Of a DNA stretch of 64,000 bases, positions 4,165 to 59,292 are shown piece after piece. The translations under genes were made by a program, and so were the position numbers. Below the pieces are notes generated by a model. It was not told the origin of the DNA and searched no databases. It saw only the letters and a list, made by a program, of their open reading frames with translations. The number at the start of each line of letters is the position of its first letter. Position 1 is the stretch's first letter. Source of the stretch: a virus; the IMG/VR virus record IMGVR_UViG_3300045988_154892; one strand, 5' to 3'.

Positions 4165-4185
4165 AGGAGGTTCTATTTTATCCAA

Positions 4186-4227
4186 TGCGTCGTAAAACCC
4201 CTTGCTTCAGCTATGGGGAGTGTCAAC
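4186..4227 (+). repeat. IS200/IS605-end-like hairpin remnant
   Basis: Inverted repeat around GCTTCAG followed by AGTG; aligns with 40611-40650, just upstream of tnpB at 40706. Confidence 0.45.
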
Positions 4228-4289
4228 CGATTGAGTATGATGAGAATGATGAACCTACTAATTTATAAAATATTGCAAGAATAAAATCA

Positions 4290-4318
4290 TTGACAAATGG
4301 ATATACTTTGTATATACT
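4290..4318 (+). promoter_or_regulatory. sigma-70-type promoter of mazEF with GTATATAC operators
   Basis: TTGACA, 17 nt, TATACT; palindrome GTATATAC at 4310-4317 and 4339-4346. Confidence 0.6.
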
Positions 4319-4366
4319 ATTATTAAGGTATATCCGTTGTATATACTTGACAAGGAGGTTGAGGGA

Positions 4367-7270: not shown

Positions 7271-7840
7271 ATGTCATACATATTATGTAACGGAAATAAT
7301 TATTTTGCACAAACGCATGAAAAGGGAATGTATATTGCACATTCGGTTGATGAAGCATTAAAATGGAGAGATATAGGCAAAGCAAATAATACTCTTAAAA
7401 CTTTGCCGAAACAGTTTCATAAGTATCATTTGGAAGCGAAATTTGTCTACAAGAATGATAATGTATTAGAAAAGATGAACGATAATACGAATTATGATTT
7501 CTACGAGAATCTGACAAATATATTAGATTTTATTAAAAGACTTGAAGAACGGAAACAGTATCTTATCGAAGAAATTAAAAAAGTCGAATTAGAAATCGTT
7601 GATATTGAACATGCAGCGGAATTTTATAACTTAAATGCTTCACAGGGATATAAAATTTATAAGATGCTTCATGAAACCAGAAATAAACGGCGGATATTAA
7701 AAGATGAAGAAATGAGAATTAATATGACCCTTGGAACGAAATTAAGAAAAGACAGTCTTGATGATTTACTGAGTCGTATCAACGGAATGGATAACAGAAA
7801 ATATTCGCCTAGAGTAAATGCAGAACTATTTAATGTATAA
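7271..7840 (+). CDS. hypothetical protein, apparent paralog of 20828-21511
   Basis: ATG behind TTGGAGG; both proteins share an N-terminal x-I-x-NG segment and a C-terminal D-I-x-H-A ... basic helix region. Confidence 0.55.
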   Translation: MSYILCNGNNYFAQTHEKGMYIAHSVDEALKWRDIGKANNTLKTLPKQFHKYHLEAKFVYKNDNVLEKMNDNTNYDFYENLTNILDFIKRLEERKQYLIEEIKKVELEIVDIEHAAEFYNLNASQGYKIYKMLHETRNKRRILKDEEMRINMTLGTKLRKDSLDDLLSRINGMDNRKYSPRVNAELFNV

Positions 7841-7856
7841 AATGGAGGAACTATAA

Positions 7857-8159
7857 ATGGATGAAAAACAAAAGATATTAAAATACATTTTAACGCATTT
7901 AGGTGATAATTTTTGCGGATCTGGTATTGATTCTTATGGACGAGCATATGCATTCACAGATAGTGAAATTGCAGCCAATAGTTTAGAAGAAACTTTATAT
8001 AATATGGGGTATGAAACCAGCAAATCATCAAAAGAAAATTTAGAATCTGATTATGTAATCCAAGAAGGCATTCAAAATGGAGGATGGTGTAAAAGGTTTG
8101 TCCAACGATGTGCCGAAAAATATTCATCAAATGGAGGTAAAAAATATGAGAACAGATAA
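7857..8159 (+). CDS. hypothetical protein
   Basis: ATG behind ATGGAGG. Confidence 0.5.
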   Translation: MDEKQKILKYILTHLGDNFCGSGIDSYGRAYAFTDSEIAANSLEETLYNMGYETSKSSKENLESDYVIQEGIQNGGWCKRFVQRCAEKYSSNGGKKYENR

Positions 8160-8625
8160 AAAGTACATGATGATTGTAACAGAAGAAGATGATAGATACG
8201 ATGCAGAAGATGGTTATGATTGTGATTTTTATGCAGATCATCCATGGGAAGGGAATTTAATTGATATTGTATATGGCAACAACATTGATGAGTTGCGGGG
8301 CAATGGCGAAAATGAAGGAATGTTTTATATGTTATATTTAGCTGAAAACGGAGAGAGAATTGGTTATGGATGTGTTGATTTTGACACTATTGAAGAAACG
8401 ATTTCGAGATATGAACTAGAAAAATGTAAAGATATGAACACTACATGGACAAAAGATGATATTATAAATGCATTGGTCGAAGATGGTATAGAACCAACCA
8501 ATGCAAATATTGTAAAAGTTATTACAGCGGAGTTTGTTCAAAATTTCAAGGATAGAATTATTGAGCTTGGAAATGAGATGATTTCGTGGCAGGTCAGTGA
8601 TGTTTTTAAAAAGAAGGGAGAATAA
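8146..8625 (+). CDS. hypothetical acidic protein
   Basis: ATG behind ATGGAGG; start moved from 8077. Confidence 0.55.
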   Translation: MRTDKKYMMIVTEEDDRYDAEDGYDCDFYADHPWEGNLIDIVYGNNIDELRGNGENEGMFYMLYLAENGERIGYGCVDFDTIEETISRYELEKCKDMNTTWTKDDIINALVEDGIEPTNANIVKVITAEFVQNFKDRIIELGNEMISWQVSDVFKKKGE

Positions 8626-8627
8626 TT

Positions 8628-8891
8628 ATGGTAAACAAATATGATAACATACAGGACACAACAGATAAAATCTATGAATTTTGCAAAGACTACATTTTTG
8701 AGCATGGTTATGCTCCGTCTTATGACGAGATTGGAAAAGGTGTTGGAATTAAAAGCAAAGGCACTATCCATTGTAATATGCATAAATTATTGAAAGAAGG
8801 TAGAATTGCAACAGATTTAAAAGAACTTGCGTCCAGAGGGTTCCGTATTTCTGGTTATATTATCATGCCGATAGGTGTAGATAAAAGATGA
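8628..8891 (+). CDS. LexA N-terminal DNA-binding-domain-like protein without a peptidase domain
   Basis: HGYAPSYDEIGKGVGIKSKGTIHCNMHKLLKEGRI parallels the B. subtilis LexA wHTH GYPPSVREIGEAVGL..STVHGHLARLETKGLI (from memory); only 87 aa. Confidence 0.65.
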   Translation: MVNKYDNIQDTTDKIYEFCKDYIFEHGYAPSYDEIGKGVGIKSKGTIHCNMHKLLKEGRIATDLKELASRGFRISGYIIMPIGVDKR

Positions 8892-9446: not shown

Positions 9447-9539
9447 ATGTCACTTGAATATGCCGTTGGATACTATGGAACCTTTGTCGCAATTGGGGTC
9501 ATTATTATTATAATTATTGCTGCGATTGCCGATTTATGA
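9447..9539 (+). CDS. 30-aa hydrophobic peptide
   Basis: ATG behind TAGGAGG; Ile/Val/Ala-rich core. Confidence 0.35.
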   Translation: MSLEYAVGYYGTFVAIGVIIIIIIAAIADL

Positions 9540-9552
9540 TTGGAGGAATAAA

Positions 9553-10557
9553 ATGAATGAAAGAGTACAGACAGGCTTAGAGGAAGAAAAACTTAAATAT
9601 AAACGAAAAATCGAAAACATTATGAAAGGGAAGTCTAAGAATCTACAAGACTTCCTTTTATATATGCATGATTTATCAGAAAAGACAAAATATGTTTACA
9701 TGTGTGATGTATTAAAATTTCTAAAGTTCACAGGAAAAGAAAAAGAAGAAGATCTTGAACTGAGAGATTTTGTATCCTATATGGCAAAAATACAAGATAA
9801 AGACAATGGATTAGAAACAGTTTCTTCTTATCAAATTGCAGTTTATTCTGCACTAAAACTTTTTTCAAAATGTATGTTTGCATATAAAATTTTTTCGAAA
9901 AATTATATGGAAGAAATTGCGAAGCCAAAAAAGAGAGAGCAACAGAGAACAATAGAAAGAAGAGAAAAGAGTTATTTGACTCCAGAAGAAACACAAACGT
10001 ATCTTTATAATGTAGACCATAAGCTAACAGGGAAAACAAGGAAACCATCAGCTATTTGGTCACAAAGAGATATTGCAGTTATAAAACTTTTTCTTTCTAC
10101 AGGCGTGCGTTGTGCAGCGTTATCTAATATGGATATAGAAAACTTAAATATGGATAAAGGAACTTTGATTGTAACAGACAAGGGGAAAAAAGTTCATACA
10201 TTCATTTTAATTCCGAAAGTTTTAGATGAATTGCAGAAATGGTTAGCATACAGAGATCAACTTGTAACAGTACGCGATACACCAGCTCTATTTCTTGGGA
10301 AAACCGGAAAGAGATTGTCAACAAGTGCAATTTCGGATATTACAAAAAAATATGCTTGTAATATAAAAGGAAAAACAATTAGTCCACATAAACTAAGGGC
10401 AACATATGGTACTACATTGTACAACGCAACGGGTGATATTGTGCTTGTACAGAAAAATTTACATCATGCATCAATTAATACAACGCTGTTATATGTAAGA
10501 GGAATGGAAGAAAAAGCACAAAAAGAATCTGTAGAAATCATGAAAAATATTATCTAA
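9553..10557 (+). CDS. tyrosine recombinase / phage integrase family
   Basis: C-terminal catalytic region HKLRATYGTTLY ... LHHASINTTLLYV (R..H-x-x-R..H..Y pattern); ATG behind TTGGAGG. Confidence 0.85.
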   Translation: MNERVQTGLEEEKLKYKRKIENIMKGKSKNLQDFLLYMHDLSEKTKYVYMCDVLKFLKFTGKEKEEDLELRDFVSYMAKIQDKDNGLETVSSYQIAVYSALKLFSKCMFAYKIFSKNYMEEIAKPKKREQQRTIERREKSYLTPEETQTYLYNVDHKLTGKTRKPSAIWSQRDIAVIKLFLSTGVRCAALSNMDIENLNMDKGTLIVTDKGKKVHTFILIPKVLDELQKWLAYRDQLVTVRDTPALFLGKTGKRLSTSAISDITKKYACNIKGKTISPHKLRATYGTTLYNATGDIVLVQKNLHHASINTTLLYVRGMEEKAQKESVEIMKNII

Positions 10558-10613: not shown

Positions 10614-11579
10614 ATGGTACAAATTTTAGAATTATTCGGTGGAATTGGAAGTCCACGGTGCGCATTACGGAATATCGGTATTCCTGTTAAATCAATTGAT
10701 TATGTTGAAATTGACGAAGCAGCAGTTAGATCATATAATGCAATGTTCAAAAGTGAACTGCCGTATAAAACGCAAACAGTGGTCGGATATAACCTACGCC
10801 CAGATATTCTAATACATGGTTCTCCCTGCCAGGACATGTCTGTTGCTGGACATCAAGGAACAGCCACCGGAAATGGAAGGACAAATCATGGAGCTGGCGC
10901 AGAAGAAGGGTCTGGAACAAGATCGAGTCTTATGTGGGAAACAATTAATATTATTAAACAGATGGGAGAATGGAAACCAAAATATGTGATTTGGGAAAAT
11001 GTTAAAAATGTCAGAAGTAAATATATGGTACATAATCACGACAGATATATGGAAGAATTAAGTAAACTTGGATATACAAGTACATATGAACTATTAGACG
11101 CAAGAGAGTTTGGTATTCCACAAGCAAGAGAACGTTATTTCACTGTAAGCTGTTTAAAAGGAAAGGAATTTGATTTTTCTGATTTGATTAGAACGCCAAT
11201 GAAAAACATTCATGAATTTTTGGAACAGAAAGTTGATCCAGTATATGAGGTAACACAACCGAGCATTCTGGAATGTATTGGCGCATCCGGAATCAGAAGA
11301 GCAACCGTAATTGACCAATATGCTTATACAATCACGACGCGACAGGATCGGACACCTGCACAGGTAATTGACTTACATAATGGAAAATACAGATATCTTA
11401 CAGAAAGAGAATGCTGGCGACTTATGGGATATACGGATCAGGATTATGAAGCAGCTGCATCTGTCCAACAGAAACGAGGAAGATATAAAATGGCATTATA
11501 TAAACAAGCTGGCAATAGTATTTGTGTTCCAATTTTTGAAAGCCTGTTTAGAAAAATTTTGTTGGGTGAAACCGCATAG
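10614..11579 (+). CDS. dcm: DNA (cytosine-5)-methyltransferase
   Basis: Motif I ELFGGIGS, motif IV GSPCQDMS, ENVKNV, QAGNSICVP. Confidence 0.9.
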   Translation: MVQILELFGGIGSPRCALRNIGIPVKSIDYVEIDEAAVRSYNAMFKSELPYKTQTVVGYNLRPDILIHGSPCQDMSVAGHQGTATGNGRTNHGAGAEEGSGTRSSLMWETINIIKQMGEWKPKYVIWENVKNVRSKYMVHNHDRYMEELSKLGYTSTYELLDAREFGIPQARERYFTVSCLKGKEFDFSDLIRTPMKNIHEFLEQKVDPVYEVTQPSILECIGASGIRRATVIDQYAYTITTRQDRTPAQVIDLHNGKYRYLTERECWRLMGYTDQDYEAAASVQQKRGRYKMALYKQAGNSICVPIFESLFRKILLGETA

Positions 11580-17941: not shown

Positions 17942-18475
17942 ATGAAATTAGAAAATATTAGTAAATACATGTGTTTAATTCTCAGACATAAACCAGAAGC
18001 AATTGGCATTACTTTGGATGAACATGGGTGGGCTAATGTCGTCGAACTGATTGACGGGATTAGGAAAGACAATCCTGGATTCGATCTGGATCATCTGTAC
18101 GAGATAGTAAAAACAGATTCGAAGGGAAGATACTCTTTTAATGAAGATAAAACACTGATCAGATGCAACCAGGGACATTCGATTCCTGTAGATGTAGAGT
18201 TGGAAGAGAAACAGCCACCAGAATTTTTATATCATGGGACTGGCGAAAAATACGTAGTGTCAATCGATCAGATTGGGTTAATTCCAAAAAGCCGGTTATA
18301 TGTTCATCTTTCGAATGACGTTGATACTGCAGAAAAAGTCGGATAAAGACACGGAAAAGAAGTTGTATATCAGGTGGCATCTGGCCAGATGCATAGAGAT
18401 GGATATAAATTTTATTTGTCTGTGAATAATGTTTGGTTAACCAAAGAAGTGCCAATAAAATATTTAGAAAGGTAA
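17942..18475 (+). pseudogene. kptA: RNA 2'-phosphotransferase Tpt1/KptA interrupted by an in-frame TAA at 18344-18346
   Basis: [35 protein letters not shown]-stop-RHGKEVV...NNVWLTKEVP; the stop replaces the residue between VG and RHG; same frame reopens and runs to 18475. Confidence 0.8.
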
Positions 18476-19670: not shown

Positions 19671-20042
19671 ATGGATGTACATTGTGGCGAAATTAAACGT
19701 GGTGAAATCTATTGGGTAGATTTCGGGAAAACGAAAGGATCTGAACAGGGCGGAAAACGCCCAGCACTTGTTGTTCAAAATAACATTGGGAATAAACATT
19801 CTTCAACAACCATAGTCGTGACAATCACATCAAAAAGGAAGCCCAATCTTCCTACTCATGTCATTTTGGAAAAAGATGCGTTGAATGGATTAAGTTCCGA
19901 TTCGTTAGTAACATGTGAACAAATTAAAACAATAGATAAAGCTAGATTGTTGGATAAAATCGGAGAGATTAGTCCCAAAAAGCAAAAAGAAGTGAACAGA
20001 GCAATGCAGATTAGTTTGCAGACATTATTAATGGAGGGATGA
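19671..20042 (+). CDS. mazF: MazF/EndoA (PemK) family toxin without an upstream MazE
   Basis: GEIYWVDFGKTKGSEQGGKRPALVVQNNIGNKHSSTTIVVTITS...LPTHV and C-terminal AMQISL closely parallel B. subtilis EndoA (from memory). Confidence 0.85.
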   Translation: MDVHCGEIKRGEIYWVDFGKTKGSEQGGKRPALVVQNNIGNKHSSTTIVVTITSKRKPNLPTHVILEKDALNGLSSDSLVTCEQIKTIDKARLLDKIGEISPKKQKEVNRAMQISLQTLLMEG

Positions 20043-24595: not shown

Positions 24596-25150
24596 ATGAG
24601 TTCAAGAGACAATACATACACAAACACAAGAACATTTTTTCTGTCAGATGATGTTGACAATGAATCGGTTGGGAAACTGATTTGGGGGATGCTTTATCAG
24701 ATCAATGAAGACAATGAAAAAGATGAAAAAGAAAAGGATTACAAGCGCGATCCAATTAAACTGTACATTAATTCCTGCGGTGGAACTATTTATGATATGT
24801 GGGCGCTGATTGATGTTATTCAGAATAGCAAAACGCCGATTCACACATATTGTATGGGATATGCCATGAGTGCAGCATTTGATATCTTCTTAGCAGGTCA
24901 TAAAAGGTATTGTTACAAGCATTCTACTTTCATGTATCATCAGATACATTGTAAGAGAAGTGGAAAGTATCAAGATCTGGTTGAAGATAGAATTGAAATG
25001 GACAATCTCAATAAGCAGATTGAGGAATATGTTTTGGAAAGAACAAAGCTGACGAAAGAAGATATTACTGACATTCGTGAAAAGAAGAAGGACTTCTATA
25101 TTCATTCGGATAAGGCGATTGAGTACGGTATCGTGGATGAAGTACTGTAA
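24596..25150 (+). CDS. clpP: ClpP-family (S14) serine protease
   Basis: INSCGGTIYDMWALIDVI, GYAMSAAF (Ser), FMYHQIH (His). Confidence 0.8.
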   Translation: MSSRDNTYTNTRTFFLSDDVDNESVGKLIWGMLYQINEDNEKDEKEKDYKRDPIKLYINSCGGTIYDMWALIDVIQNSKTPIHTYCMGYAMSAAFDIFLAGHKRYCYKHSTFMYHQIHCKRSGKYQDLVEDRIEMDNLNKQIEEYVLERTKLTKEDITDIREKKKDFYIHSDKAIEYGIVDEVL

Positions 25151-25381: not shown

Positions 25382-26584
25382 ATTAAAATACAAAGATGTG
25401 AACAAATAATAATAAGAAAAACTCATCCTAAATTTAAAGTGATTGACCAGCAATGTTTTCATTCAAAGAATCTATACAATGAAGCTAATTATACAATTCG
25501 ACAAGAGTTTATAAAAAATAAAAGTTATATTAGTTATTATGATATGAATCGAGATTTTAAAACTCATGAAAATTATAAACTTACATTTAGCCAACCAGCG
25601 AATTGTATTTTGAGGTTGCTTGATAAGAATTGGAAATCTTATTTTAATGCAATAAAAGATTGGAAGCAGCATCCTGAGAAATATTTTGGGATGCCAAAAC
25701 TTCCAAAATATCTTAAAAAGGATGGAAGATACTTATGGATAATCCCTAACAATCAATGCCATTATGACTATGAAAAAAGTGCTGTGCATTTAAGCAATAG
25801 ACTGGTAAATGATTATGAATGGAAATGTAGATGTTTGGGGCGATTAATTCAAGTCAGATTTATTCCAAGAGGATCGTGTTATGTGATGGAAATTGTATAT
25901 GAAATAGAAGTTCCTAATACGAACAGAAAATCAAAGAATATAGTAGCTATTGATTTAGGTGTAGCTAATCTTGTAACTATGACAAATAATATCGGATTAA
26001 ATCCAATTATTATTAACGGCAAGGGACTCAAAAGTATAAATCAATATTATAATAAAAGACTTGCAAAAGAAAAATCGTCACTAAAGATCAGAAATGGTAA
26101 AGATTGGTCAAGGAAACTTAATATTATAACTTTTAAAAGATTTCAGAGAATAAAGAATTATATGCATAATACGAGTCGTTATATTGTCAATTGGTGTATC
26201 AAAAATAACATTGACACATTGGTTGTTGGTAAGAACGATGAGTGGAAACAAGGAAAGAAACGTATGCAGAATTTTACATTTATTCCATACGAAATATTAT
26301 TACAACAACTTAAATACAAATGTGAAAACGCTGGGATTAATTACATTGAGACTAATGAAAGTTATACATCTGGAACAAGTTTTTTAGATGAAGAAGAACC
26401 GACTAAACAAAACTATAATAAAGACAGACGAATTCAAAGAGGATTATTTAGAAGTAATTCTGGATTGCTTATTAATAGTGATGTAAATGGTTCGTTACAG
26501 ATTATGAAAAAAGTATTCCCAAAGGCGATTAGTCGATATGGGATAGAGGCTGTTCTAACGCCTATAGTTATAAATGCAGTGTAA
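25382..26584 (+). CDS. tnpB: TnpB (IS200/IS605 OrfB) RNA-guided nuclease family; non-canonical start
   Basis: IDLGVANLVT (RuvC-I), ETNESYTS, NGSLQI. Frame is open from 25364. First canonical start (GTG 25439) would cut off the N-terminal IKIQRCEQIIIRK. ATT 25382 lies 9 nt after GGAGG. Confidence 0.75.
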   Translation: MKIQRCEQIIIRKTHPKFKVIDQQCFHSKNLYNEANYTIRQEFIKNKSYISYYDMNRDFKTHENYKLTFSQPANCILRLLDKNWKSYFNAIKDWKQHPEKYFGMPKLPKYLKKDGRYLWIIPNNQCHYDYEKSAVHLSNRLVNDYEWKCRCLGRLIQVRFIPRGSCYVMEIVYEIEVPNTNRKSKNIVAIDLGVANLVTMTNNIGLNPIIINGKGLKSINQYYNKRLAKEKSSLKIRNGKDWSRKLNIITFKRFQRIKNYMHNTSRYIVNWCIKNNIDTLVVGKNDEWKQGKKRMQNFTFIPYEILLQQLKYKCENAGINYIETNESYTSGTSFLDEEEPTKQNYNKDRRIQRGLFRSNSGLLINSDVNGSLQIMKKVFPKAISRYGIEAVLTPIVINAV

Positions 26585-29525: not shown

Positions 29526-29731
29526 TGTTTGGATTAGTCTTAAAAAGCGAATACAATCACATGAAAGATTTTGCTCAGTCAATTATTCATAATTTAAGAG
29601 ATGACTTGGAATACGAGAGAAAGGAAACTCTATATTGGATGTGTAAATACGATGGCACAGTGGGAGACGATGTGTCATTTGAGGACTGGGTAAAGAGATT
29701 TGACGAAGTAAGAGAGGAGAATAAACAATGA
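29525..29731 (+). CDS. hypothetical protein
   Basis: TAATG overlap; AAGAGGA SD. Confidence 0.45.
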   Translation: MFGLVLKSEYNHMKDFAQSIIHNLRDDLEYERKETLYWMCKYDGTVGDDVSFEDWVKRFDEVREENKQ

Positions 29732-30240
29732 GAACTTTAATTGTAGTAGATGTGCAGAATGATTTCGTAAATGGTAGCCTTGGATCGGAAGAAGCACAGG
29801 CGATTATTCCGAATGTGAAAAAGAAAATTGAAGAGTATTATAATCGTGGAGATCAAATTATCTTTACAAGAGATACGCATTATGACGATTACTTAAATAC
29901 TCCGGAGGGAAGAAAACTTCCAGTAAAACATTGTATTTTTGGAACAAATGGATGGAAGGTTGTGAGCGACCTTGAGGTTCCTAACTGCAGATATGTAAAC
30001 AAAAGTACTTTTGGAATTTTGCAGTGGAGAAATATGACATGGATTGGAGATGGTGATATCGATCTGGTCGGTTTGTGTACGGATATATGTGTAATTTCAA
30101 ATGCATTAGTCCTTAAAGCTATGTTTCCAAATACGGAAATTACAGTAGACGCAGGCTGTTGCGCGGGATCTACACCAGAGAGACATAAGGCAGCACTCGA
30201 AGTTATGAAAAGTTGCCAGATTAATGTGATTGGAGAATAG
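29728..30240 (+). CDS. pncA: nicotinamidase / isochorismatase-family hydrolase
   Basis: LIVVDVQNDF ... FTRDTH ... LVGLCTDICV (catalytic Cys). Confidence 0.8.
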   Translation: MRTLIVVDVQNDFVNGSLGSEEAQAIIPNVKKKIEEYYNRGDQIIFTRDTHYDDYLNTPEGRKLPVKHCIFGTNGWKVVSDLEVPNCRYVNKSTFGILQWRNMTWIGDGDIDLVGLCTDICVISNALVLKAMFPNTEITVDAGCCAGSTPERHKAALEVMKSCQINVIGE

Positions 30241-30244
30241 AGAT

Positions 30245-31060
30245 ATGATTACTTTAAATAGTAAAGAAGTAAAAGTAGAACACTTTCCAGATGGAACACA
30301 GAGAATCGTACTAGATGATTGTTTTTATCAGAAATATAACAACATTACATGGAAGTATGAAAAAGAAGAAGAACTTTCAACGCTGATTTATATTACAAAA
30401 CATTTAAAAAATTTTCCATATATTAAATCAATTGATCTTACAATGTTTTATCTTCCGAATGCCAGAATGGACAGAATCCATGATCAGGGCGAGGTTTTTA
30501 CATTAAAATGGTTCGCTGATGTTATTAATTGGCTCGAATTTGATAGAGTAGAGGTACTTGATGTTCATAGTAATGTTGGAGCAGCGCTTTTGAATAGAGT
30601 ATATGTCTTTAATCCAAGAGAATATATTGATGAAGTAATTGAGCAGATTAGTAAAGAAAATCTTATTCTTTATTTTCCGGATGCCGGTAGTTCGAAAAGA
30701 TATTCTGGATTGTTTTCTGACATTCCGTATTGCTATGGTGAGAAAAATCGAGATTGGAATACAGGAAAAATTCTTGGACTCAAAATCAGAGATAACGGTA
30801 TTGATCTTAAAGGTAAAAAAGTTTTGATGATTGATGACATCATTTCATATGGCGGTTCTTTATATTATAGTGCAAAAGCGTTGAAAGAACGTTGTGTAGA
30901 TAGAATTTATGCTTATGCATCACATACCGAAAATTCAGTTCTTGATAGAGAAAAAGGAACATTAATCAAATCACTTGAAGATGGAACAGTTGAAAGATTA
31001 TTTACAACAGACAGTCTTTTCACAGGAAAACACGATAAAATCACAGTTATGGAGGTCTAA
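30245..31060 (+). CDS. prs: ribose-phosphate pyrophosphokinase-like enzyme (Prs family; Adps candidate)
   Basis: FPDGTQRI, LDVHSN, KKVLMIDDIISYGGSL PRPP-type loop; shorter than a housekeeping Prs. Confidence 0.75.
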   Translation: MITLNSKEVKVEHFPDGTQRIVLDDCFYQKYNNITWKYEKEEELSTLIYITKHLKNFPYIKSIDLTMFYLPNARMDRIHDQGEVFTLKWFADVINWLEFDRVEVLDVHSNVGAALLNRVYVFNPREYIDEVIEQISKENLILYFPDAGSSKRYSGLFSDIPYCYGEKNRDWNTGKILGLKIRDNGIDLKGKKVLMIDDIISYGGSLYYSAKALKERCVDRIYAYASHTENSVLDREKGTLIKSLEDGTVERLFTTDSLFTGKHDKITVMEV

Positions 31061-31061
31061 T

Positions 31062-32534
31062 ATGAGAAACATTTCTTTTATGCTGATGGCAGACACATAT
31101 AAAAATACAAATCCAGATGCTCTTCCGGCAGGTCTTACAAAATTAACTTCCTATATTACTCCAAGAAAGTCAATGTTTAAAAATCTGAATGAAGTAGTGT
31201 TCTTTGGATTACAGTGCTTTATTAAGGAATATATGATTGAATTAGCAAACGAAACGTTCTTCAAAAGACCAAAAGAAGAGGTTGTTGCAGAATATAAAGA
31301 ATATCTGGATAATCAGATCGGTTCTCAGAGTTATGATCTTGGACGTATCGAAAAATTATGGGATCTGCAGTATTTACCTGTAGAGATCAAAGCTCTTCCA
31401 GAAGGATCTGTTGTAACAATGGGAGTCCCGTGTATCGAGATGAGTAACGCACATCCGGATTTCGCATGGACGGTACAATGGCTGGAATGCATTATGCAGT
31501 CTTTTATTTTTGGGACATGCAACTGGGCAACTGTAGGTCATAAATATAGAACACTCGCAAACGAGTTTTATGAAAAAACAACCGATAATAAAAATCCAGC
31601 AATGGCAATGGCAGATTTTGGATTCAGAGGGCTTGGCATCGAGAACGGTATCCACGCCAGCTCTTCATGGCTTCTGTCATTTGACAAAACCTCTACAATT
31701 CCAGCAACCCAGTATATTGATAAGATGTACAATGCAGATTGCGTCAAAAATCATATTGGAATCGGAGCAGTTAGCCTGGAACATGCAACAGTATGCAGTA
31801 ATTTGGCAGTATGTGAAACCGAGGAGAATTTATTAAAAAGACTGTTGACAGATACGTACAAGAATACTTCTTTCAGCTATGTCTCTGACACTTTCGATTA
31901 TTGGAAACTTATTGAAGAAGCGCTTCCAAAACTCAAGAAAGAAATTGAGGAGCATAATGGTAAATTCCTTGTACGCCCTGATAGTGGAGATATTGTTGAA
32001 ATTTCAGTAAAAACAGTTCAGAAACTGTACGAGATTTTTGGCGGAAGTGTAAATTCCAAAGGGTATAAAGAGCTGAATCCAAAGATTGGTATTATTTATG
32101 GAGATGGCTGTCAGTACAGTAAAATCAAAGAAATTTGGACACAGCTTGAAAAACTTGGATTTGCTGCAGATACGATCCTTTTTGGAGTAGGTGCATTCTC
32201 ATTTTCAGCAATGTGTACTCCGGAAGATGGAATGGTTTGCCTAACTAGAGACACATTTGGATTTGCTATGAAAAGTACCTATTGTGTAATTGATGGAAAA
32301 GAATATACCATTCAGAAAAATCCAAAAACGGATAGAAATAATTTAAAGAAATCACATAAAGGTCTTTGCCGTGTTGTGAAAGAAGGTAATAATTTTGTAT
32401 GCCATGATGGATATACAGAAGATACGATTCCAGAAGAAAATGAATTAAAACTTATCTTTAAAAATGGAGAATTAGTAAAAGAGCAGACCTTTGGAGAAAT
32501 CAGAGAAAGACTGAATGGAGAAAATCATGATTGA
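31062..32534 (+). CDS. nadV: nicotinamide phosphoribosyltransferase-like enzyme (NadV/Nampt family; Namat candidate)
   Basis: ADTYK, DFGFRGLG, LVRPDSGD, IIYGDG. Confidence 0.8.
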   Translation: MRNISFMLMADTYKNTNPDALPAGLTKLTSYITPRKSMFKNLNEVVFFGLQCFIKEYMIELANETFFKRPKEEVVAEYKEYLDNQIGSQSYDLGRIEKLWDLQYLPVEIKALPEGSVVTMGVPCIEMSNAHPDFAWTVQWLECIMQSFIFGTCNWATVGHKYRTLANEFYEKTTDNKNPAMAMADFGFRGLGIENGIHASSSWLLSFDKTSTIPATQYIDKMYNADCVKNHIGIGAVSLEHATVCSNLAVCETEENLLKRLLTDTYKNTSFSYVSDTFDYWKLIEEALPKLKKEIEEHNGKFLVRPDSGDIVEISVKTVQKLYEIFGGSVNSKGYKELNPKIGIIYGDGCQYSKIKEIWTQLEKLGFAADTILFGVGAFSFSAMCTPEDGMVCLTRDTFGFAMKSTYCVIDGKEYTIQKNPKTDRNNLKKSHKGLCRVVKEGNNFVCHDGYTEDTIPEENELKLIFKNGELVKEQTFGEIRERLNGENHD

Positions 32535-33033
32535 AATTATCGAAGGAAATTTATTTGATACGGATGCAAAATTTATTTGTCATCAGGTAAATTGTATGGG
32601 AAAGATGGGATCTGGCGTGGCTTTGCAGGTCAGACAGCGATTTCCACATGTATACGAAGAATATAAAAAGGTAGCATCATCGGATATGCTGGGGAAAGTA
32701 CAAATTGTACCAGTCAAGCCAAAATATATTGGATACGACTGTGGATCGATTGCGATTCCAAGTAATGAACAGTGGATTTGTAATTTCTTTGCACAAGATA
32801 ACTATGGATATGACGGAAAACAATATACTTCTCTGGAAGCATTAGAAAAGTGTTTTAGAACTATGTGTCGGAAAGCACATGAAAGGAACAATAATTTTAG
32901 TGCAACAATTGCTATGCCATATAAGATCGGCTGTGATCGTGGTGGAGCAGATTGGGACGAAGTATATTCAATGATGCAGAAGATTTTTAATGAACTTGAT
33001 ACTCATGTTGAACTGTGGAAATTAAATCAGTAA
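32527..33033 (+). CDS. macro domain protein (ADP-ribose binding/hydrolase)
   Basis: IIEGNLFDTDAKFICHQVNCMGKMGSGVALQV. Confidence 0.75.
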   Translation: MIEIIEGNLFDTDAKFICHQVNCMGKMGSGVALQVRQRFPHVYEEYKKVASSDMLGKVQIVPVKPKYIGYDCGSIAIPSNEQWICNFFAQDNYGYDGKQYTSLEALEKCFRTMCRKAHERNNNFSATIAMPYKIGCDRGGADWDEVYSMMQKIFNELDTHVELWKLNQ

Positions 33034-33050
33034 AGGAGAGGAGAATAGAT

Positions 33051-33809
33051 ATGTATACTTTTGATGCAAAAGAAACAAAAAATAAGATTGTCGAGTGGAT
33101 TAAAATGTTCTTTGAGCAGAATGGGAAAGATTGTATTGCCACAGTAGGTCTTTCAGGGGGTAAAGATTCAAGCATTGTTGCGGCTCTCTGTGTGGAAGCT
33201 CTTGGAAAGAATAGAGTTTTAGGTGTGCTCATGCCAGACGGAGAACAGGCAGATATTGAAGATGCCTATGAAGTTGCTAAACATTTAGGTATTGAATACT
33301 GTACTGTAAATATTCATCCAGCAATTCTTGCGCTAAAGCACGAAATCAGACCACAAATTGGTGATCATTGGTCAAAACAGACATCAATTAATCTGCCTCC
33401 TCGAATCAGAATGACAACACTTTATGCAATTTCACAGAGTATGAATGGACGAGTTGCTAATACATGCAATCTTTCGGAAACACTCTTATCTTGGGAAACT
33501 CGCTGGGGCGATGCAGTAGGAGACTTTGCACCATTAAAGGATTTCACAGTACAGGAAGTAAAAGCTATTGGATATGAGACGATTCTACTGAAAAAGATGG
33601 TTGACAAAACGCCGTCAGACGGATTATGTGGATCTTCTGATGAAAGCGCTCTTGGATTTAAATATTCTGTATTCGATCGGTATGCAAGAACAGGTGAAAT
33701 TGATGATGCTGCAGTAAAAGCTATTATCGATGCAAGGGTTGAAAAATACAGATTCAAGAGAAGACCAATTCCATATTTTGAAAGTGGTCTGAAATCATAT
33801 TTAGACTGA
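33051..33809 (+). CDS. nadE: NH3-dependent NAD+ synthetase
   Basis: PP-loop GLSGGKDSS; TPSDGL. Confidence 0.85.
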   Translation: MYTFDAKETKNKIVEWIKMFFEQNGKDCIATVGLSGGKDSSIVAALCVEALGKNRVLGVLMPDGEQADIEDAYEVAKHLGIEYCTVNIHPAILALKHEIRPQIGDHWSKQTSINLPPRIRMTTLYAISQSMNGRVANTCNLSETLLSWETRWGDAVGDFAPLKDFTVQEVKAIGYETILLKKMVDKTPSDGLCGSSDESALGFKYSVFDRYARTGEIDDAAVKAIIDARVEKYRFKRRPIPYFESGLKSYLD

Positions 33810-33847
33810 TTTGCATTCTAAAATAACCTTAATAATTTGATATCATG

Positions 33848-33902
33848 AGCGTTCTACAATCAATTCTAATTCACTAGGTATATAAATTGTAGAACGCTTT
33901 TT
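33848..33902 (+). terminator. rho-independent terminator closing the NAD cluster
   Basis: 13-bp perfect stem AGCGTTCTACAAT / ATTGTAGAACGCT, T5 tail. Confidence 0.75.
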
Positions 33903-33974
33903 GAAAATGGATTCTAAGAGAATAATCTTACATAGAATGATATAACTATTTACATAAAGAGAGGACAAAAATCA

Positions 33975-34253: not shown

Positions 34254-34503
34254 GATCATCGAGGAAGATTTCGAATGTCTTGATAAGCATATAACAAAAG
34301 CATTGACATTCGATAAAGACAATTTATATAAAATTTCGGACTTTATCGAACTACTACAGAAAGCGATGGAGAAATATGGTGATAAAGAAATTGCTACACA
34401 TGATATGAATTTTGACGTTATTTCAGGGATTACATGGCCCTATATTTATTTTGATGAGACTGCAGGTGTCGATAATAATGGTATGATTTGTATTTTTGAA
34501 TAG
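34246..34503 (+). CDS. hypothetical protein
   Basis: ATG behind AGAGGAG; start moved from 34171. Confidence 0.45.
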   Translation: MNKIIEEDFECLDKHITKALTFDKDNLYKISDFIELLQKAMEKYGDKEIATHDMNFDVISGITWPYIYFDETAGVDNNGMICIFE

Positions 34504-34516
34504 GAGAAAAGGAAAT

Positions 34517-35242
34517 ATGAAAACTCAAATTAGAATGGGTGTGTTTGAGACAAATTCATCAAGTATGCATTCGCTTTGCGTGATGAAAAATGAAGGTAAA
34601 TATACTCCACAAGAAATTACTCATGATATGTGGTTATGGGATGATTCAAAAACAGGAGAGAAAAATTGTATTTGGAGACCATATGAGGAAGATTTATATT
34701 TTGGAAGATCTCCATTTAGGGCATTAGCAAGTTTTTCTGATAAATGGCTATATGCTTGTGCTTCGTTGGTTGAAGAATATAATGATGATACATATAAAGA
34801 ATTATTACGAATTGTTAAGAAATATGTGCCGACATTAAAGAAAATTGAACTTCCAGAAAAATGTAAATATATTCCGAATAAAGATAACGAAGAATATAAT
34901 GCAGACAATTATTACCAGGAAGGAATGACGGAAGAAGAGTTAAACAAGTTTCTTTCTGACAAAGAAGAACAATATGGAATTGAAATTAATTATTGGACTG
35001 ATTCAGAAAATGAATCCTGGAGATTCAATATTCCAGATACTGGTTCTGTGGATGAAGATATCCTTAGTGGATTTTTAAAAAAAGAGAATATCACATTAGA
35101 AGAGTTTATTTCTAACAAAAAATATGTAGTAATTCAGGATGGAGATGAAACATGCTATTTTTCTGGAATGAAAGAAGTAGGTTTAATCAATATGGATGCA
35201 ATTGATCATGAATATCCAGAAGGGGAATGGTGGGAAAGATGA
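34517..35242 (+). CDS. FETNSSS-motif protein, paralog A
   Basis: N-terminus MKTQIRMGVFETNSSSMHSL shared with the next gene. Confidence 0.55.
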   Translation: MKTQIRMGVFETNSSSMHSLCVMKNEGKYTPQEITHDMWLWDDSKTGEKNCIWRPYEEDLYFGRSPFRALASFSDKWLYACASLVEEYNDDTYKELLRIVKKYVPTLKKIELPEKCKYIPNKDNEEYNADNYYQEGMTEEELNKFLSDKEEQYGIEINYWTDSENESWRFNIPDTGSVDEDILSGFLKKENITLEEFISNKKYVVIQDGDETCYFSGMKEVGLINMDAIDHEYPEGEWWER

Positions 35243-35640
35243 AAACACAAATTAGAAAAGGAACATTTGAAACAAATAGTAGCTCAGTTCACTCGCTCGT
35301 AATGTGTAATAAAAGCGATTATGATAAATGGGAGCAAGGAAAAGTATTTCTATTTAGAGGAAGTGGCTATGCCTATCCAGATGGCAACAAACCTCAAGTA
35401 AATCATTTTTATACAAAAGAAGAAGCAATCACCTTTGAAAAATCTAGCAAGTATCATCCAAATTTTACATACGACACAGAAGGAGATCTTTTGGATTTTC
35501 TTCATGAAAATGAATGGTATGATTATGACTATTTTTGGAATGAATGGTGCGATAATTATTGGGAAACTTTTGAAGAATTATTCACAACAGAGAATGGGGA
35601 CACTGTTATTGCGTTCGGCTATGATGGATATGACGGCTGA
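35239..35640 (+). CDS. FETNSSS-motif protein, paralog B
   Basis: N-terminus MKTQIRKGTFETNSSSVHSL; ATGA overlap. Confidence 0.55.
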   Translation: MKTQIRKGTFETNSSSVHSLVMCNKSDYDKWEQGKVFLFRGSGYAYPDGNKPQVNHFYTKEEAITFEKSSKYHPNFTYDTEGDLLDFLHENEWYDYDYFWNEWCDNYWETFEELFTTENGDTVIAFGYDGYDG

Positions 35641-39123: not shown

Positions 39124-39372
39124 ATGAGAAATTTAGATGAAAATGATTTAAAGGTATTATTTGAATCGCTTGGACAAATCTTACATAATCAGGATAAAAT
39201 TAATAAACATTTTGGTATTAACAAACATGATTGTGATTGGGGATATGAAGATACAAAAACAGAAGATTTGAGTCAAGAATGTTTTGTTATTACTCAGGAT
39301 TATAAGGATTATATTGATGAGCAGGAAGAAGAGCAAAAGAAAATCCCGATAGATCCAATGGCAATATTTTAA
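39124..39372 (+). CDS. hypothetical acidic protein
   Basis: ATG behind AGAGGTAAGG. Confidence 0.5.
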   Translation: MRNLDENDLKVLFESLGQILHNQDKINKHFGINKHDCDWGYEDTKTEDLSQECFVITQDYKDYIDEQEEEQKKIPIDPMAIF

Positions 39373-39384
39373 TGAGTAACTCGA

Positions 39385-39400
39385 TGAAATGTTGTTTTCA
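39385..39400 (+). repeat. junction motif TGAAA-N6-TTTCA
   Basis: TGAAATGTTGTTTTCA; CAGGAGG 3 nt downstream. Confidence 0.7.
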
Positions 39401-39413
39401 ACAGGAGGAAGAG

Positions 39414-40055
39414 ATGGATAAATATTTGAGTGTGATTACAAACTTTGGCTGCCACTATGCGTGTCCATATTGTATTGTCAAGAATAATAATATGCAGATT
39501 CCTAAAAGTACATTGGAAGGGATTGATTCCTTAGCAGATGAGATTAAGAGGAATAATTGCAATTGGGTTTCTTTGTCGGGTGGCGGAGATCCAATTTGGG
39601 ATTATGAAAATCATAAAGATTGGTATAACAAATTTTTTGATATTGTTAACGCACTAAGGGTAAAAATCGAATTACATACAAGTATTCCTAATCTAAGTAA
39701 TGTTCCATATAACCGCTTCAACAGAGTAGTGTATCATCTGCATAGTCTTAAACAGCTCCGTTCCATCAAAAGAATTGGCAATGAAATTATTAGAGTTGTC
39801 TTTGTGGTAACAAAAGATTTTACGGAAGATCTAATCAATAAAATTGCTGTTTACTGTTATAATTCAGATAATATTGACGAGTTAAGTTTTCGCCAGATGG
39901 TAGATAATCATTATCAGGAGACAGATTACTGCAGAGATTATCTAAGGTCGGGACATCAGAAATTATGGTGGTATATTGAGCAGAGCGACTACAATCTTTA
40001 TTATTGTGAAAATAAAGTATATACGGAATATAGAAAAATTGGAGAAAATATATGA
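39414..40055 (+). CDS. radical SAM enzyme (small)
   Basis: CHYACPYC (CxxxCxxC) and SLSGGGDP; start moved from 39372 to the ATG behind the SD. Confidence 0.65.
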   Translation: MDKYLSVITNFGCHYACPYCIVKNNNMQIPKSTLEGIDSLADEIKRNNCNWVSLSGGGDPIWDYENHKDWYNKFFDIVNALRVKIELHTSIPNLSNVPYNRFNRVVYHLHSLKQLRSIKRIGNEIIRVVFVVTKDFTEDLINKIAVYCYNSDNIDELSFRQMVDNHYQETDYCRDYLRSGHQKLWWYIEQSDYNLYYCENKVYTEYRKIGENI

Positions 40056-40705: not shown

Positions 40706-41812
40706 GTGTCAGAAAAAGCTTATAAGTATAGAATCTATCCAAATAAAAAACAGCAAGAATTAATCCAGAAAACATTCGGATGCTGCAGATTTGTATATAA
40801 CTATTTCTTAGATAAAAGAAAATCAGAATATGAGAAAGATAAAACATCTTTATCTTACAACGATACAAGTAAACTGCTTACGAAATTAAAGCAAGAATTA
40901 AGCTGGTTAAAAGAGCCAGACAAAGATTCTCTACAGAAAACGCTAAAAGATTTAGATATGGCTTACCAAAAGTTTTTCAAAGAGTATGCTGGTTATCCAA
41001 AGTTCAAGAGTAAAAAGAACAGATACAAGTCATATAGAACCAGTTGTACAAACAACAACATTTCTTTTCAGAACAAACATATTAAGTTGCCAAAGCTTGG
41101 TTTGATTAAAATCCGAGATAGACAAATTACGCAAGGAAGAATCTTAAACGCCACTATCTCACAGGAACCAAATGGACACTACTATTGTTCTTTATGTTGT
41201 ACTGATGTAGATTTTCCACAATATCAGAAAACCAATCAGAATATTGGGATTGACTTAGGTTTAGTAGATTTTGCAATTACGTCTGATGGAATAAAAATTG
41301 AAAATCCTCAGTTTTATGAAAAATCAGAACAGAAACTTGCTAGATTACAGAGAGAACTTTCGAGAAAAACAATCGGTGGTTCCAACTGGAATAAAGTACG
41401 AATCAAAGTTGCGAATCTACAGAAACACGTAGCTAATCAACGCAAGGATTTCTTACAAAAGCTTACTACTCGGATTATAAAACAGAATGACATTATTTGT
41501 ATTGAGGATTTAGATGTGAAATCTATGAAAGAAACAGATACTTCCATTCGTAATAAACGGGTAGGAGATGTATCTTGGTCAGAATTTCGTAGAATGCTTA
41601 CATATAAATCTCAGTGGTATGGAAAAACATTATCTGTTGTAGACAGATATTTCTCATCATCTCAGATTTGTCATTGTTGCGGTTATAGAGACGGTAAGAA
41701 AACAGAAGATATTCGTGAGTGGACATGTTCTGAATGTGGAACTATTCATGACAGAGATATAAACGCTGCGATTAATATTCTTAATGAAGGATTAAGGCTT
41801 TTAAATGTCTAA
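40706..41812 (+). CDS. tnpB: TnpB (IS605 OrfB) RNA-guided nuclease
   Basis: KAYKYRIYPNKKQ, IGIDLGL, CIEDL, zinc finger CHCCG...CSECG, DRDINAAINI. Confidence 0.9.
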   Translation: MSEKAYKYRIYPNKKQQELIQKTFGCCRFVYNYFLDKRKSEYEKDKTSLSYNDTSKLLTKLKQELSWLKEPDKDSLQKTLKDLDMAYQKFFKEYAGYPKFKSKKNRYKSYRTSCTNNNISFQNKHIKLPKLGLIKIRDRQITQGRILNATISQEPNGHYYCSLCCTDVDFPQYQKTNQNIGIDLGLVDFAITSDGIKIENPQFYEKSEQKLARLQRELSRKTIGGSNWNKVRIKVANLQKHVANQRKDFLQKLTTRIIKQNDIICIEDLDVKSMKETDTSIRNKRVGDVSWSEFRRMLTYKSQWYGKTLSVVDRYFSSSQICHCCGYRDGKKTEDIREWTCSECGTIHDRDINAAINILNEGLRLLNV

Positions 41813-51344: not shown

Positions 51345-52211
51345 ATGGGAATTACAGCAAAGAGTTATTTTAGTGGAGCTGGTGGCATGGATCTTGGGAT
51401 TAAAGAAGCCGGTATCAACATTTTAGAGTCATTTGAAATTGACAAGAAATGTTGTGATACTTTGCGAAAAAATTTTAATCATAAGGTTAACGAATGTGAT
51501 ATTGCCAAAATAACAGTATTAGATCAGCAGGATGCGGACGTTTACATTGGGACATTTCCGTGTACTAAATATTCAACTGCTGCAGACATTAATGGAACAC
51601 GAACAGGCGATGATTTGTTTTTACATTTCTTTCGACATATTGTATTAGCAAAACCAGAAATGTATGTTGTTGAGAATGTGCCTGGAATGCTTAAGTTTAG
51701 AGTTGTTATGGAAGCACTGACAAAACTTCCGGATTATTACGTTCGAATTGAATGTCCAGTTAATGCGAATATGTGGTCGCCACAGGAAAGAAAGCGACTG
51801 ATTCTAATTGGCAGTAAAAAGCCTTTTAGTCGTTTTGAATATCCAGAAAGAAAACCATTGAGATTGAAAGATATTCTGGAAAAAGATAGTGAAGTAGATA
51901 TTCCGCAATATGTTTTGAATCGTATTAATGGAAAATACAGGGACAACCCAATTGTATCTGATCCAGAAAATGATGATCTTGCACCAACATGTGTTGCTCA
52001 CTATGCAAAGGATAAAGGGACAAGATTAATTAAGGATGGAAAGAGAATAAGACCATATACGGTTAGAGAATATGCGAGACTACAAGGATTTCCTGATTGG
52101 TTTCAGTTTTGCGGAACTGATAATGATGCTTATCGTCAAATTGGTAATGCAGTGGCGGTACCTATGGGTAGATGGATTGGAGAACAGATTGTAAGATATT
52201 TCGAACAATAG
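51345..52211 (+). CDS. dcm: DNA (cytosine-5)-methyltransferase, second copy
   Basis: YFSGAGGMDLG, TFPCTKYS, VVENVPGM, QIGNAVAVP. Confidence 0.9.
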   Translation: MGITAKSYFSGAGGMDLGIKEAGINILESFEIDKKCCDTLRKNFNHKVNECDIAKITVLDQQDADVYIGTFPCTKYSTAADINGTRTGDDLFLHFFRHIVLAKPEMYVVENVPGMLKFRVVMEALTKLPDYYVRIECPVNANMWSPQERKRLILIGSKKPFSRFEYPERKPLRLKDILEKDSEVDIPQYVLNRINGKYRDNPIVSDPENDDLAPTCVAHYAKDKGTRLIKDGKRIRPYTVREYARLQGFPDWFQFCGTDNDAYRQIGNAVAVPMGRWIGEQIVRYFEQ

Positions 52212-59283: not shown

Positions 59284-59292
59284 GAGAATTGG

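Follow-up and report, generated by a model that had tools for sequence, protein, structure and literature searches.

Linkage of an Asp-less Namat clade to nicotinamidase and NAD synthetase genes in gut phages suggests a nicotinate-routed form of NARP1

Several systems by which phages restore NAD+ have been described. NARP1, composed of Adps and Namat, rebuilds NAD+ from ADP-ribose (ADPR) and nicotinamide (10.1101/2024.02.11.579819, Osterman et al.; structures in PMC12774641 and PMC13586617). In about 15% of cases the operon also includes the gene of a Poa1p-like macro domain protein, Adpp; in this variant, termed NARP1-AP, Adpp turns the ADPR-1''-phosphate made by the aRES defence into ADPR (bioRxiv 10.64898/2026.01.28.702374). 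NARP2 consists of a Nampt and a nicotinamide mononucleotide (NMN) adenylyltransferase (NMNAT), as in KVP40 with its NadV Nampt and NatV NMNAT/Nudix protein, and NARP3 consists of PnuC and NadR (PMC13464706). The classical Preiss-Handler route is found in Bacillus phage G, in which a PncB-type protein (gp277) and NadD (gp281) are encoded next to a PncA-like protein (gp275) and NadE (gp283). Here, we describe a cluster of five genes (positions 29728-33902) in a 64,000-nt stretch of DNA, hereafter the window, from the IMG/VR record IMGVR_UViG_3300045988_154892. The cluster combines an Adps-clade enzyme and a Namat-clade enzyme lacking the amide-binding Asp (Namat*) with a nicotinamidase (PncA), a macro domain protein and an NAD+ synthetase (NadE). 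Judged from its gene families, residue changes and gene neighbourhood, it probably represents a nicotinate-routed (deamidated) NARP1-AP that would rebuild NAD+ after NADase attack. Its features are as follows; ADPR-PP denotes ADPR pyrophosphate.

29728..30240, + strand: pncA-like nicotinamidase, 170 aa (Pfam Isochorismatase, E 1.8e-27; Shine-Dalgarno agagaggag before the ATG)
30245..31060, + strand: Adps-clade Prs-like enzyme, 271 aa, predicted ADP-ribose pyrophosphokinase (alternative TTG start at 30230)
31062..32534, + strand: Namat-clade Nampt-like enzyme without the amide-binding Asp (Namat*), 490 aa, predicted nicotinate:ADPR-PP transferase
32527..33033, + strand: macro domain protein, 168 aa, Poa1p/Adpp-like, predicted ADPR-1''-phosphate phosphatase (PF01661; alternative ATG at 32515)
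33051..33809, + strand: single-domain NH3-dependent NAD+ synthetase NadE, 252 aa (PF02540, E 1.4e-45; alternative GTG start at 33015)
33848..33903, + strand: intrinsic terminator closing the cluster (13-bp perfect stem 33848-33860 / 33886-33898, 25-nt loop, T5 run)

The window has a GC content of 32% and carries nearly all of its genes on the + strand. In the list of open reading frames (ORFs), the five co-directional + strand ORFs at 29728-33809 were tightly packed, with junctions, in order, of a 4-nt gap, a 1-nt gap, an 8-nt overlap and a 17-nt gap, and a GGAG-type Shine-Dalgarno sequence was found upstream of every ATG start of the five genes. A preliminary description of this DNA had named the five genes, their tight coupling (overlaps or gaps of 1-17 nt) and a terminator with a 13-bp stem, and all three observations held: the gene identities were backed by Pfam and other profile matches and by structure matches, and the terminator by direct reading and folding (dG -21 kcal/mol, z -5.8, 0/200 shuffles folding as well). 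A pattern-based terminator scan missed it (long 25-nt loop).

At least 20 public contigs from human gut metagenomes, the longest of 212 kb, encode the identical Nampt-like protein, and on each of them it lies in the same set of five genes; the cluster also occurred on IMG/VR viral contigs of 100-216 kb. Since the cluster is present on these contigs, it is not an assembly artefact; the five-gene cluster is real. PHROG matches for the five proteins and their neighbours (e.g., phrog_1735, 870 bits) support its phage origin. No near-identical DNA to the window was found in the phage collection searched. The cluster is not a one-off: as detailed below, it is one member of a family that is both old and large and that spans gut phages and Bacillota genomes.

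Nicotinamide pocket of Namat* and its linkage to PncA and NadE

The closest characterised relative of the Prs-like enzyme was the validated SPbetaL1 Adps (37.5% identity, E 7e-38, 146 bits by tblastn), and its best score against cellular Prs structures was only 58 bits. Its match to TIGR01251 (87.7 bits) fell under the curated cutoff of 113, and it matched phrog_619 with 208 bits. The segments GEKNRD, IDDIISYGGS, DVHS, FPDAGS and ARMDR aligned with SPbetaL1 and other Adps. In particular, the PP loop (DDIISYGGS) resembled that of other Adps and was unlike DDxxDT(G/A)GT, which we take to be the PRPS motif. The Adps positions Lys185, His121, Asp161, Asp212/213 and the Arg of the RMDR motif were all kept (for their roles, see PMC13586617).

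The Nampt-like protein comprised NAPRTase and NAMPT_N domains and matched NF006629 with 405 bits. It scored 337 bits with SPbetaL1 Namat (9w5x) and 267 bits with 9ke8, against approximately 144 bits with human NAMPT and 120 bits with the entry 7yqo; all of these are deposited as 'nicotinamide phosphoribosyltransferase', and 9w5x and 9ke8 carry the Namat SCH motif. By these scores the protein belongs to the Namat clade and not to the Nampt clade. The genes of the Prs-like (30245-31060) and Nampt-like (31062-32534) enzymes lie 1 nt apart, which is the adjacency expected of a NARP1 pair. The preliminary description had compared the locus with NARP1 and had suggested placing the two enzymes relative to Prs/NadV and Adps/Namat; the pairing (37.5% identity to SPbetaL1 Adps; 337 bits to Namat versus about 144 bits to NAMPT) and the placement in the Adps and Namat clades were borne out, with the qualification that this Namat forms a special Asp-less clade. 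Separately, the family phrog_12872 (547 positions) matched both Adps and Namat proteins, which suggests an Adps-Namat fusion family.

Namat* differs from canonical Namat in the nicotinamide pocket. In the alignment, its K209, S211 and S238 occupy the positions of G213, D215 and A242 of SPbetaL1 Namat, and the conserved segment F-x-G-T-D-T-I-P reads F-D-K-T-S-T-I-P. The codons concerned are:

31686..31694, + strand: codons K209-T210-S211, in place of the canonical Namat/Nampt G-T-D (alignments)
31773..31775, + strand: codon S238, in place of the canonical A242 (alignment)

These positions were followed across the family by mapping the 150 nearest 50%-identity cluster representatives from a library of 1.8 billion proteins, together with six locus-derived sequences, to SPbetaL1 numbering. 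The sequences fell into an Asp-type class (101) and an Asp-less class (51):

Position 213: Asp-type, Gly in 99; Asp-less, Lys, Asn, Pro, Ser or Ala, with Gly in few
Position 215: Asp-type, Asp in 101/101; Asp-less, Ala in 31 and Ser in 20
Position 242: Asp-type, Ala in 100/101; Asp-less, Ser in 49/51

The ring-stacking and phosphoribosyl residues were common to both classes (Asp13, Tyr15, Phe189, Arg192, His245, Arg306, Asp308, Gly360, Asp361 and Thr398-Arg399-Asp400). Asp215 and Ala242 are two of the seven named nicotinamide-pocket residues of SPbetaL1 Namat, with Gly213 outside the seven; Asp215 hydrogen-bonds nicotinamide, and the D215A variant has 8-fold less activity (PMC12774641). The equivalent of Asp215 in human NAMPT is Asp219. 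In the original 2006 study of the human D219S variant, both substrates were reportedly used. One review tabulates a switch of substrate affinity for D219S and a loss of activity for D219A (PMC4919578), and another review calls Asp219 fundamental to substrate specificity (PMC7096376).

In a neighbour-joining tree computed with the three signature columns masked, a single split parted 51/51 Asp-less from 102/102 Asp-type representatives, and the internal divergence of the Asp-less clade was about equal to that of the Asp-type group. By this analysis, the enzymes without the Asp make up a single deep clade, whose members occur both in gut phages and in genomes of Bacillota. Among the representatives P0121-P0270, many Namat-family proteins of 550-1100 aa matched the 490-aa query in 2-4 separate stretches, which suggests inteins or large insertions.

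The pocket change was accompanied by a change in gene neighbourhood. We tallied, by local tblastn, the genes around 290 Namat-family loci with their flanks, for which PncA and NadE were never a selection criterion. The loci came from IMG/VR (with the window clade and an Asp-type alignment as seeds), GTDB genomes, INPHARED records and context look-ups for divergent representatives picked by motif alone; one of these look-ups (P0132) was a 2.6-kb contig and uninformative. The counts were:

Asp-less loci (n=180): PncA 172, NadE 153, either 178, Adps 173, macro 116
Asp-type loci (n=110): PncA 0, NadE 0, either 0, Adps 100, macro 14

Among the Asp-less loci flanked by 3 kb or more on each side (n=148), PncA was present in 145, NadE in 137 and both in 134. 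Both genes were missing from two of the 180 Asp-less loci, among them truncated bacterial loci such as L233 and L260. After clustering at 70% identity, all 21 Asp-less clusters were positive and none of the 60 Asp-type clusters was (Fisher p = 7e-20). The linkage survives rearrangement: the order PncA-Adps-Namat*-(macro)-NadE was found in the window clade and in phage Phass-1, Adps-x-Namat*-macro-NadE-PncA in MT835544 and Adps-PncA-Namat*-NadE in many cultured Clostridium species, and in some phage lineages inserts of 0.4-5 kb lie within the cluster. Cultured carriers include Thomasclavelia cocleata DSM 1551, Lachnospiraceae bacterium A4, Dysosmobacter segnis BX15, Clostridium intestinale DSM 6191 and C. 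manihotivorum CT4. The loci L246-L264, among them those of C. intestinale DSM 6191 and the C. manihotivorum CT4 chromosome (NZ_CP025746.1), carry a distinct class of Asp-less Namat with the signature 'G-A-S'; this Clostridium set may be a chromosomal housekeeping pathway of ADPR recycling rather than a group of prophage genes.

The best solved relative of the window PncA was the pyrazinamidase/nicotinamidase of P. horikoshii (1im5), and the alignment contained the segments VDVQNDF, NKSTF, TDICV and RDTH...KHC, which presumably hold the catalytic Asp, Lys and Cys and the D-x-H...H metal site, in that order. NadE reached 150 bits with TIGR00552 (cutoff 64), contained no glutaminase domain and matched best the structures of P. 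horikoshii NadE (2e18) and then a 249-aa NadE (3fiu), which we take to be the Francisella enzyme that prefers nicotinate mononucleotide (NaMN). A role of NadE as an NMN synthetase (NaMN to NMN) was considered and judged illogical on pathway grounds, as it would bypass the Nampt chemistry only to need an absent NMNAT. INPHARED contains 1451 records with an Adps homolog but only 13 with a PncA homolog and 44 with a NadE homolog, and the records that combine PncA/NadE homologs with Adps were human-gut contigs and Phass-1.

Proposed pathway and alternative explanations

The enzymatic activities in the following scheme, including the nicotinate specificity, are predictions drawn from gene families, residue changes and genomic co-occurrence. 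A host NADase would cleave NAD+ into ADPR and nicotinamide, which form the starting point. PncA would convert nicotinamide to nicotinate (step 1), and the Adps homolog would convert ADPR and ATP to ADPR-PP (step 2). Namat*, with its altered pocket (G213K, D215S and A242S in SPbetaL1 numbering), would then join nicotinate and ADPR-PP directly to nicotinate adenine dinucleotide (NaAD, or deamido-NAD; step 3), from which NadE would form NAD+ with NH3 and ATP (step 4). The Adpp-like macro protein would turn ADPR-1''-phosphate into ADPR and thereby feed step 2 (step 5); RES-type NADases could supply this substrate, as could the product of the Tpt1 that the phage itself encodes. Adps and Namat* would thus stand in for the PncB and NadD of the Preiss-Handler route. 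With slightly more confidence than doubt, we propose on the basis of these sequences that Namat* is a hitherto unknown nicotinate:ADPR-PP transferase forming NaAD in one step and that, together with PncA, Adps and NadE, it would constitute a fourth, deamidated route of NAD+ reconstitution, which bypasses PncB and NadD, is widespread in human-gut Bacillota phages and was taken up into Clostridium chromosomes. Speculatively, the nicotinate route may have been selected by a rapid deamidation of nicotinamide in these hosts, for which the host PncA of gut Bacillota could be responsible, or by a host countermeasure that removes nicotinamide; another possible advantage, equally speculative, is that the extra ATP-driven step renders the route irreversible.

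A route through phosphoribosyl pyrophosphate (PRPP) in place of ADPR-PP would need an adenylyltransferase. In agreement with the preliminary description, the window contained no NMN adenylyltransferase: none was found by Pfam among ORFs of at least 120 aa, and no (H/T)xGH nucleotidyltransferase motif occurred in any frame. Moreover, no CTP_transf_like/cytidylyltransferase-like NMNAT was matched by Pfam in the window or in the intervening ORFs of expanded clusters, and the precomputed Pfam calls of the looked-up loci held no NMNAT, NadD or PncB. With the phage G NadD and PncB seeds, neither the window nor the 290 loci gave a relevant match, and the complete 136-kb genome of Phass-1, which carries the same cluster, contained neither a HIGH-motif protein nor a match to the NadD seed. 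Readings of the cluster as NARP2, NARP3 or the classical Preiss-Handler route were rejected, as no NMNAT, NadR, PnuC, PncB or NadD was found in the sequences searched.

Several points weigh against the proposed pathway. The window represents approximately 64 kb of a genome of about 200-216 kb, so that an NMNAT or NadD may be encoded elsewhere in this phage. NadD occurs in essentially all bacteria, and the host enzyme could complete the classical route. The adenine clamp of Namat* is the weakest link of the ADPR-PP claim for this phage: compared with the motif tested (GSXΦXΦXΦTRD, with aromatic X), the SCH clamp in the window reads GAFSFSAM followed by a 10-aa insert and then TRD, so that aromatic residues remain at two of the three positions, Ala stands at the third (Tyr396), and positions 40/41 are Met-Phe (Arg40 replaced by Met). 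With such a partly canonical clamp, a preference for ADPR-PP over PRPP is not certain, and even canonical Namat keeps PRPP activity in vitro (PMC12774641). The substrate specificity is deduced from a few residues and the gene neighbourhood, and the deamidated route would be the longer one and would cost the phage more ATP. In addition, the Asp-less enzymes are one clade, which indicates long retention of the linkage and not repeated independent origin, and some Clostridium loci have no NadE within 7 kb.

An alternative that we regard as unlikely is that Namat* accepts both nicotinamide, yielding NAD+, and nicotinate, yielding NaAD for NadE, with PncA diverting only part of the nicotinamide. 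The human D219S variant is listed as an affinity switch and not as a loss of activity (PMC4919578), the other catalytic residues of Namat* are intact and the evidence from the 290 loci would fit equally. On the other hand, if nicotinamide were still a good substrate, the retention of PncA in 145/148 complete Asp-less loci would be pointless, and the nicotinamidase would draw nicotinamide away from the transferase of the same phage. Nor is there a reason in such a scheme for the Asp never being kept once PncA and NadE are present, and SPbetaL1 Namat D215A loses 8-fold activity with nicotinamide (PMC12774641). The preliminary description had held that PncA and NadE imply a branch from nicotinate through deamido-NAD to NAD, within a dual-branch pathway. 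The loss of Asp215 and the co-occurrence across the 290 loci support the deamidated branch. The two parallel branches fared less well: because the loss of Asp215 co-occurs with PncA and NadE, a single nicotinate line through the Asp-less Namat* is likelier.

It is similarly improbable that the cluster merely boosts the Preiss-Handler route, with the Prs-like enzyme making PRPP, Namat* making NaMN, the host NadD making NaAD and the phage NadE finishing, so that ADPR would not be a substrate. The use of PRPP by canonical Namat in vitro (PMC12774641) and the degenerate clamp of the window protein (Met at Arg40, Ala at Tyr396, 10-aa insert) would fit this scheme, as would the universal NadD of the hosts, and there are known jumbo phages that carry Preiss-Handler genes as a set (PMC11662467; phage G). 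However, the Prs-like enzyme groups with Adps (146 versus at most 58 bits, a TIGR01251 score below cutoff and an Adps-type PP loop). Across the clade, the clamp is better preserved than in the window: the Phe392 position is aromatic in 48/51 Asp-less representatives, position 40 is Arg or Lys in 45/51, and Phass-1 has a canonical SCH motif (GAYTYQYVTRD). Furthermore, phages of the classical route carry PncB and NadD, neither seed of which was matched in the 180 Asp-less loci, and the linked macro/Adpp gene, present in 116/180 of these loci, would yield ADPR.

Finally, mere co-location of an ordinary NARP1-AP with PncA and NadE genes that reinforce host salvage, the substitutions being neutral, is very improbable even though Tpt1, NADAR, SLOG and Nudix genes tend to gather in phage islands (PMC9503650), given that PncA or NadE was found in 178/180 Asp-less and 0/110 Asp-type loci, that Asp215 (101/101) and Ala242 (100/101) of the Asp-type representatives indicate positions that are not neutral, and that D215A is deleterious in SPbetaL1 Namat (PMC12774641).

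Macro domain, Tpt1 and neighbouring genes

The macro protein matched the phrog_335 'phosphatase' family with 151 bits, and its relatives in the PDB were the macro domains of DarG, TARG1 and Poa1p. Its gene overlaps the stop of Namat* by 8 nt and is thus placed, like the NARP1-AP macro gene, within two genes of the pair. The preliminary description had offered two roles for it. The first, recovery of ADPR from ADPR-1''-phosphate, agrees with the one already published for NARP1-AP. The second, erasure of DarT-type DNA ADP-ribosylation, is unlikely from the alignment. The DarG-like profile NF048014 gave 76 bits with the window protein (cutoff 250), and the Gln of its NFFAQDNYG segment aligned to the Lys of the DarG segment FPTKKHW, which we take to be the catalytic-Lys segment; a DarG-like anti-DarT role was rejected on the basis of this Lys-to-Gln replacement. 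The macro proteins embedded in Asp-type NARP1 operons also have Gln at this position. Being present in about two thirds of the Asp-less loci (116/180), the macro gene is an accessory and not a core part of the Asp-less operon. Phass-1 encodes a 139-aa protein (L008 7576-7995, WIC39686.1) at the place between Namat* and NadE; Pfam detected no domain in it, macro or otherwise, and tblastn found no resemblance to the macro protein of the window.

A possible second source of ADPR-1''-phosphate lies 12 kb upstream of the cluster:

17942..18346, + strand: Tpt1/KptA RNA 2'-phosphotransferase, NAD-consuming (PF01885, E 1.2e-30)

In yeast tRNA splicing, Tpt1 uses NAD+, and the ADPR-1'',2''-cyclic phosphate that it releases gives rise to the substrate of Poa1p. 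In related phages, the Tpt1 gene is found within the cluster itself, with Namat* on one side and the macro gene on the other (L075 8943-9482, L088), and KptA was present in 15 Asp-less loci in the 290-locus tally. Tpt1 was also found near Asp-type Adps/Namat in 14 loci, largely in Bacteroidota genomes, and in phage G it lies between PncB and NadD; another of the Tpt1 genes that recur with NAD-rebuilding genes is that at L214 7036-7596. Thus, the macro protein may also recycle the by-product of the phage's own Tpt1 RNA repair, which would link RNA repair to ADPR recycling.

Further genes lie between the core genes of expanded clusters, namely NADAR, YAcAr/SLOG, a RlaP Pol-beta-type nucleotidyltransferase and a PurA-like adenylosuccinate synthetase, at the following loci:

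L088 11691-12119; L075 10400-10825; L119 9181-9948; L075 4305-5411

The SLOG and NADAR genes were inserted in the clusters of related phages alongside Tpt1. A 157-aa protein with a DVDG motif, possibly HAD-like and without a Pfam match, directly follows Namat* in L062 and L075. In another lineage (L207), TnpB genes (3184-4347, 7624-8694) lie on the opposite strand as insertions immediately between Namat* and NadE, both of which are still present. A Tad2-like gene (anti-Thoeris sponge) was located 2 kb downstream of a PncA-Adps-Namat*-NadE cluster (L121 10217-10510), which is consistent with an anti-defence island.

In the window, two adjacent overlapping genes just 3' of the terminator (34496-35242 and 35227-35640) share an N-terminal MKTQIRxGxFETNSSSxHS segment and look like paralogs; neither had a Pfam match, and 34496-35242, the only one searched against PHROG, had no match there. 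A small radical-SAM-like protein (CxxxCxxC near the N-terminus) is encoded 6 kb downstream of the cluster (39372-40055), and a homolog is inserted between PncA and Adps in another lineage (L055 5524-6156). The window also carries two copies of TnpB/IS605 OrfB (25439-26584 and 40706-41812). The genes at 9517-10557, 10614-11579, 19671-20042, 24596-25150 and 51345-52211 encode a tyrosine integrase, two C5 cytosine methyltransferases, a MazF/PemK toxin, for which no obvious antitoxin was found in the window, and a ClpP-like protease. At 58114-60183 and 60277-63664, an RNA ligase and then a P-loop kinase/HD-domain protein form an RNA-repair-like pair, after which come an 875-aa P-type cation ATPase and a vWA-TerF-like protein, both uncommon as phage cargo.

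Comparison with known NAD+ reconstitution systems

In the searchable literature, no paper describing a PncA- or NadE-linked NARP1 was found, and neither the cluster nor the Asp-less Namat clade is described in the papers that deal with gut jumbo phages carrying NAD genes (PMC11662467), with viral NAD-ADPR systems (PMC9503650) or with phAss-1 (PMC10607447). The module of PncA, Asp-less Namat and NadE therefore appears undescribed there. The macro extension of NARP1 is already known as NARP1-AP (2026), and the novelty that the preliminary description had ascribed to the whole extended pathway applies to the module of PncA, Asp-less Namat and NadE and not to the addition of the macro gene.

If the proposed pathway is correct, direct synthesis of NaAD from ADPR-PP and nicotinate would be a new reaction in NAD metabolism, and the arms race that phages and bacteria wage over NAD would gain a further layer. 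NARP1 would then have diversified at the pyridine end too, and not only at the ADP-ribose end (Adpp, RyDEP). This would suggest that the supply of nicotinamide versus nicotinate in gut anaerobes, or a nicotinamide-removing defence, shapes phage counter-defence. The three-residue signature (213, 215 and 242 in SPbetaL1 numbering) provides a simple rule to re-annotate thousands of metagenomic 'nicotinamide phosphoribosyltransferase' genes, and the cultured Bacillota carriers make the hypothesis directly testable.

The window shares with NARP2 and NARP3 the restoration of NAD+ by phage genes, and with NARP2 also a Nampt-family enzyme. In contrast to these systems, it has no NMNAT, NadR or PnuC, and it contains a Prs-like Adps partner, which NARP2 phages lack. 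With the Preiss-Handler route (PncA-PncB-NadD-NadE; gp275-gp283 in phage G), the cluster has in common the nicotinamidase entry, the NH3-dependent NadE exit and the association with Tpt1/KptA, and nicotinate and NaAD are also the intermediates predicted for the window. PncB (PRPP-dependent) and NadD (ATP-dependent adenylylation) are, however, absent from the window, and Adps and Namat* appear to replace them, reusing the intact ADP-ribose skeleton. In gene content, the cluster thus looks like the pathway frame of phage G with PncB and NadD exchanged for Adps and Namat*.

The likeness to NARP1-AP lies in a Poa1p-like macro gene beside Namat, its membership in the phrog_335 family and the Gln in place of the DarG/TARG1 Lys. 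The gene order in phage Gary is Adps-Adpp-Namat, whereas the macro gene of the window follows Namat*, and the window adds PncA and NadE. Like NARP1, the window carries an adjacent, phage-borne pair of Adps- and Namat-clade enzymes with no NMNAT in the stretch searched and with the catalytic residues of both enzymes kept. By analogy, its likely purpose is also that of NARP1, the rebuilding of NAD+ from the ADP-ribose left by NADase defences. Three differences set it apart from NARP1. Namat* lacks Asp215 and has Ser at Ala242 and Lys at Gly213; a nicotinamidase and an NAD synthetase flank the Asp-less pair in nearly every well-flanked locus and in 0/110 canonical loci; and the predicted product of the transferase is NaAD and not NAD+.

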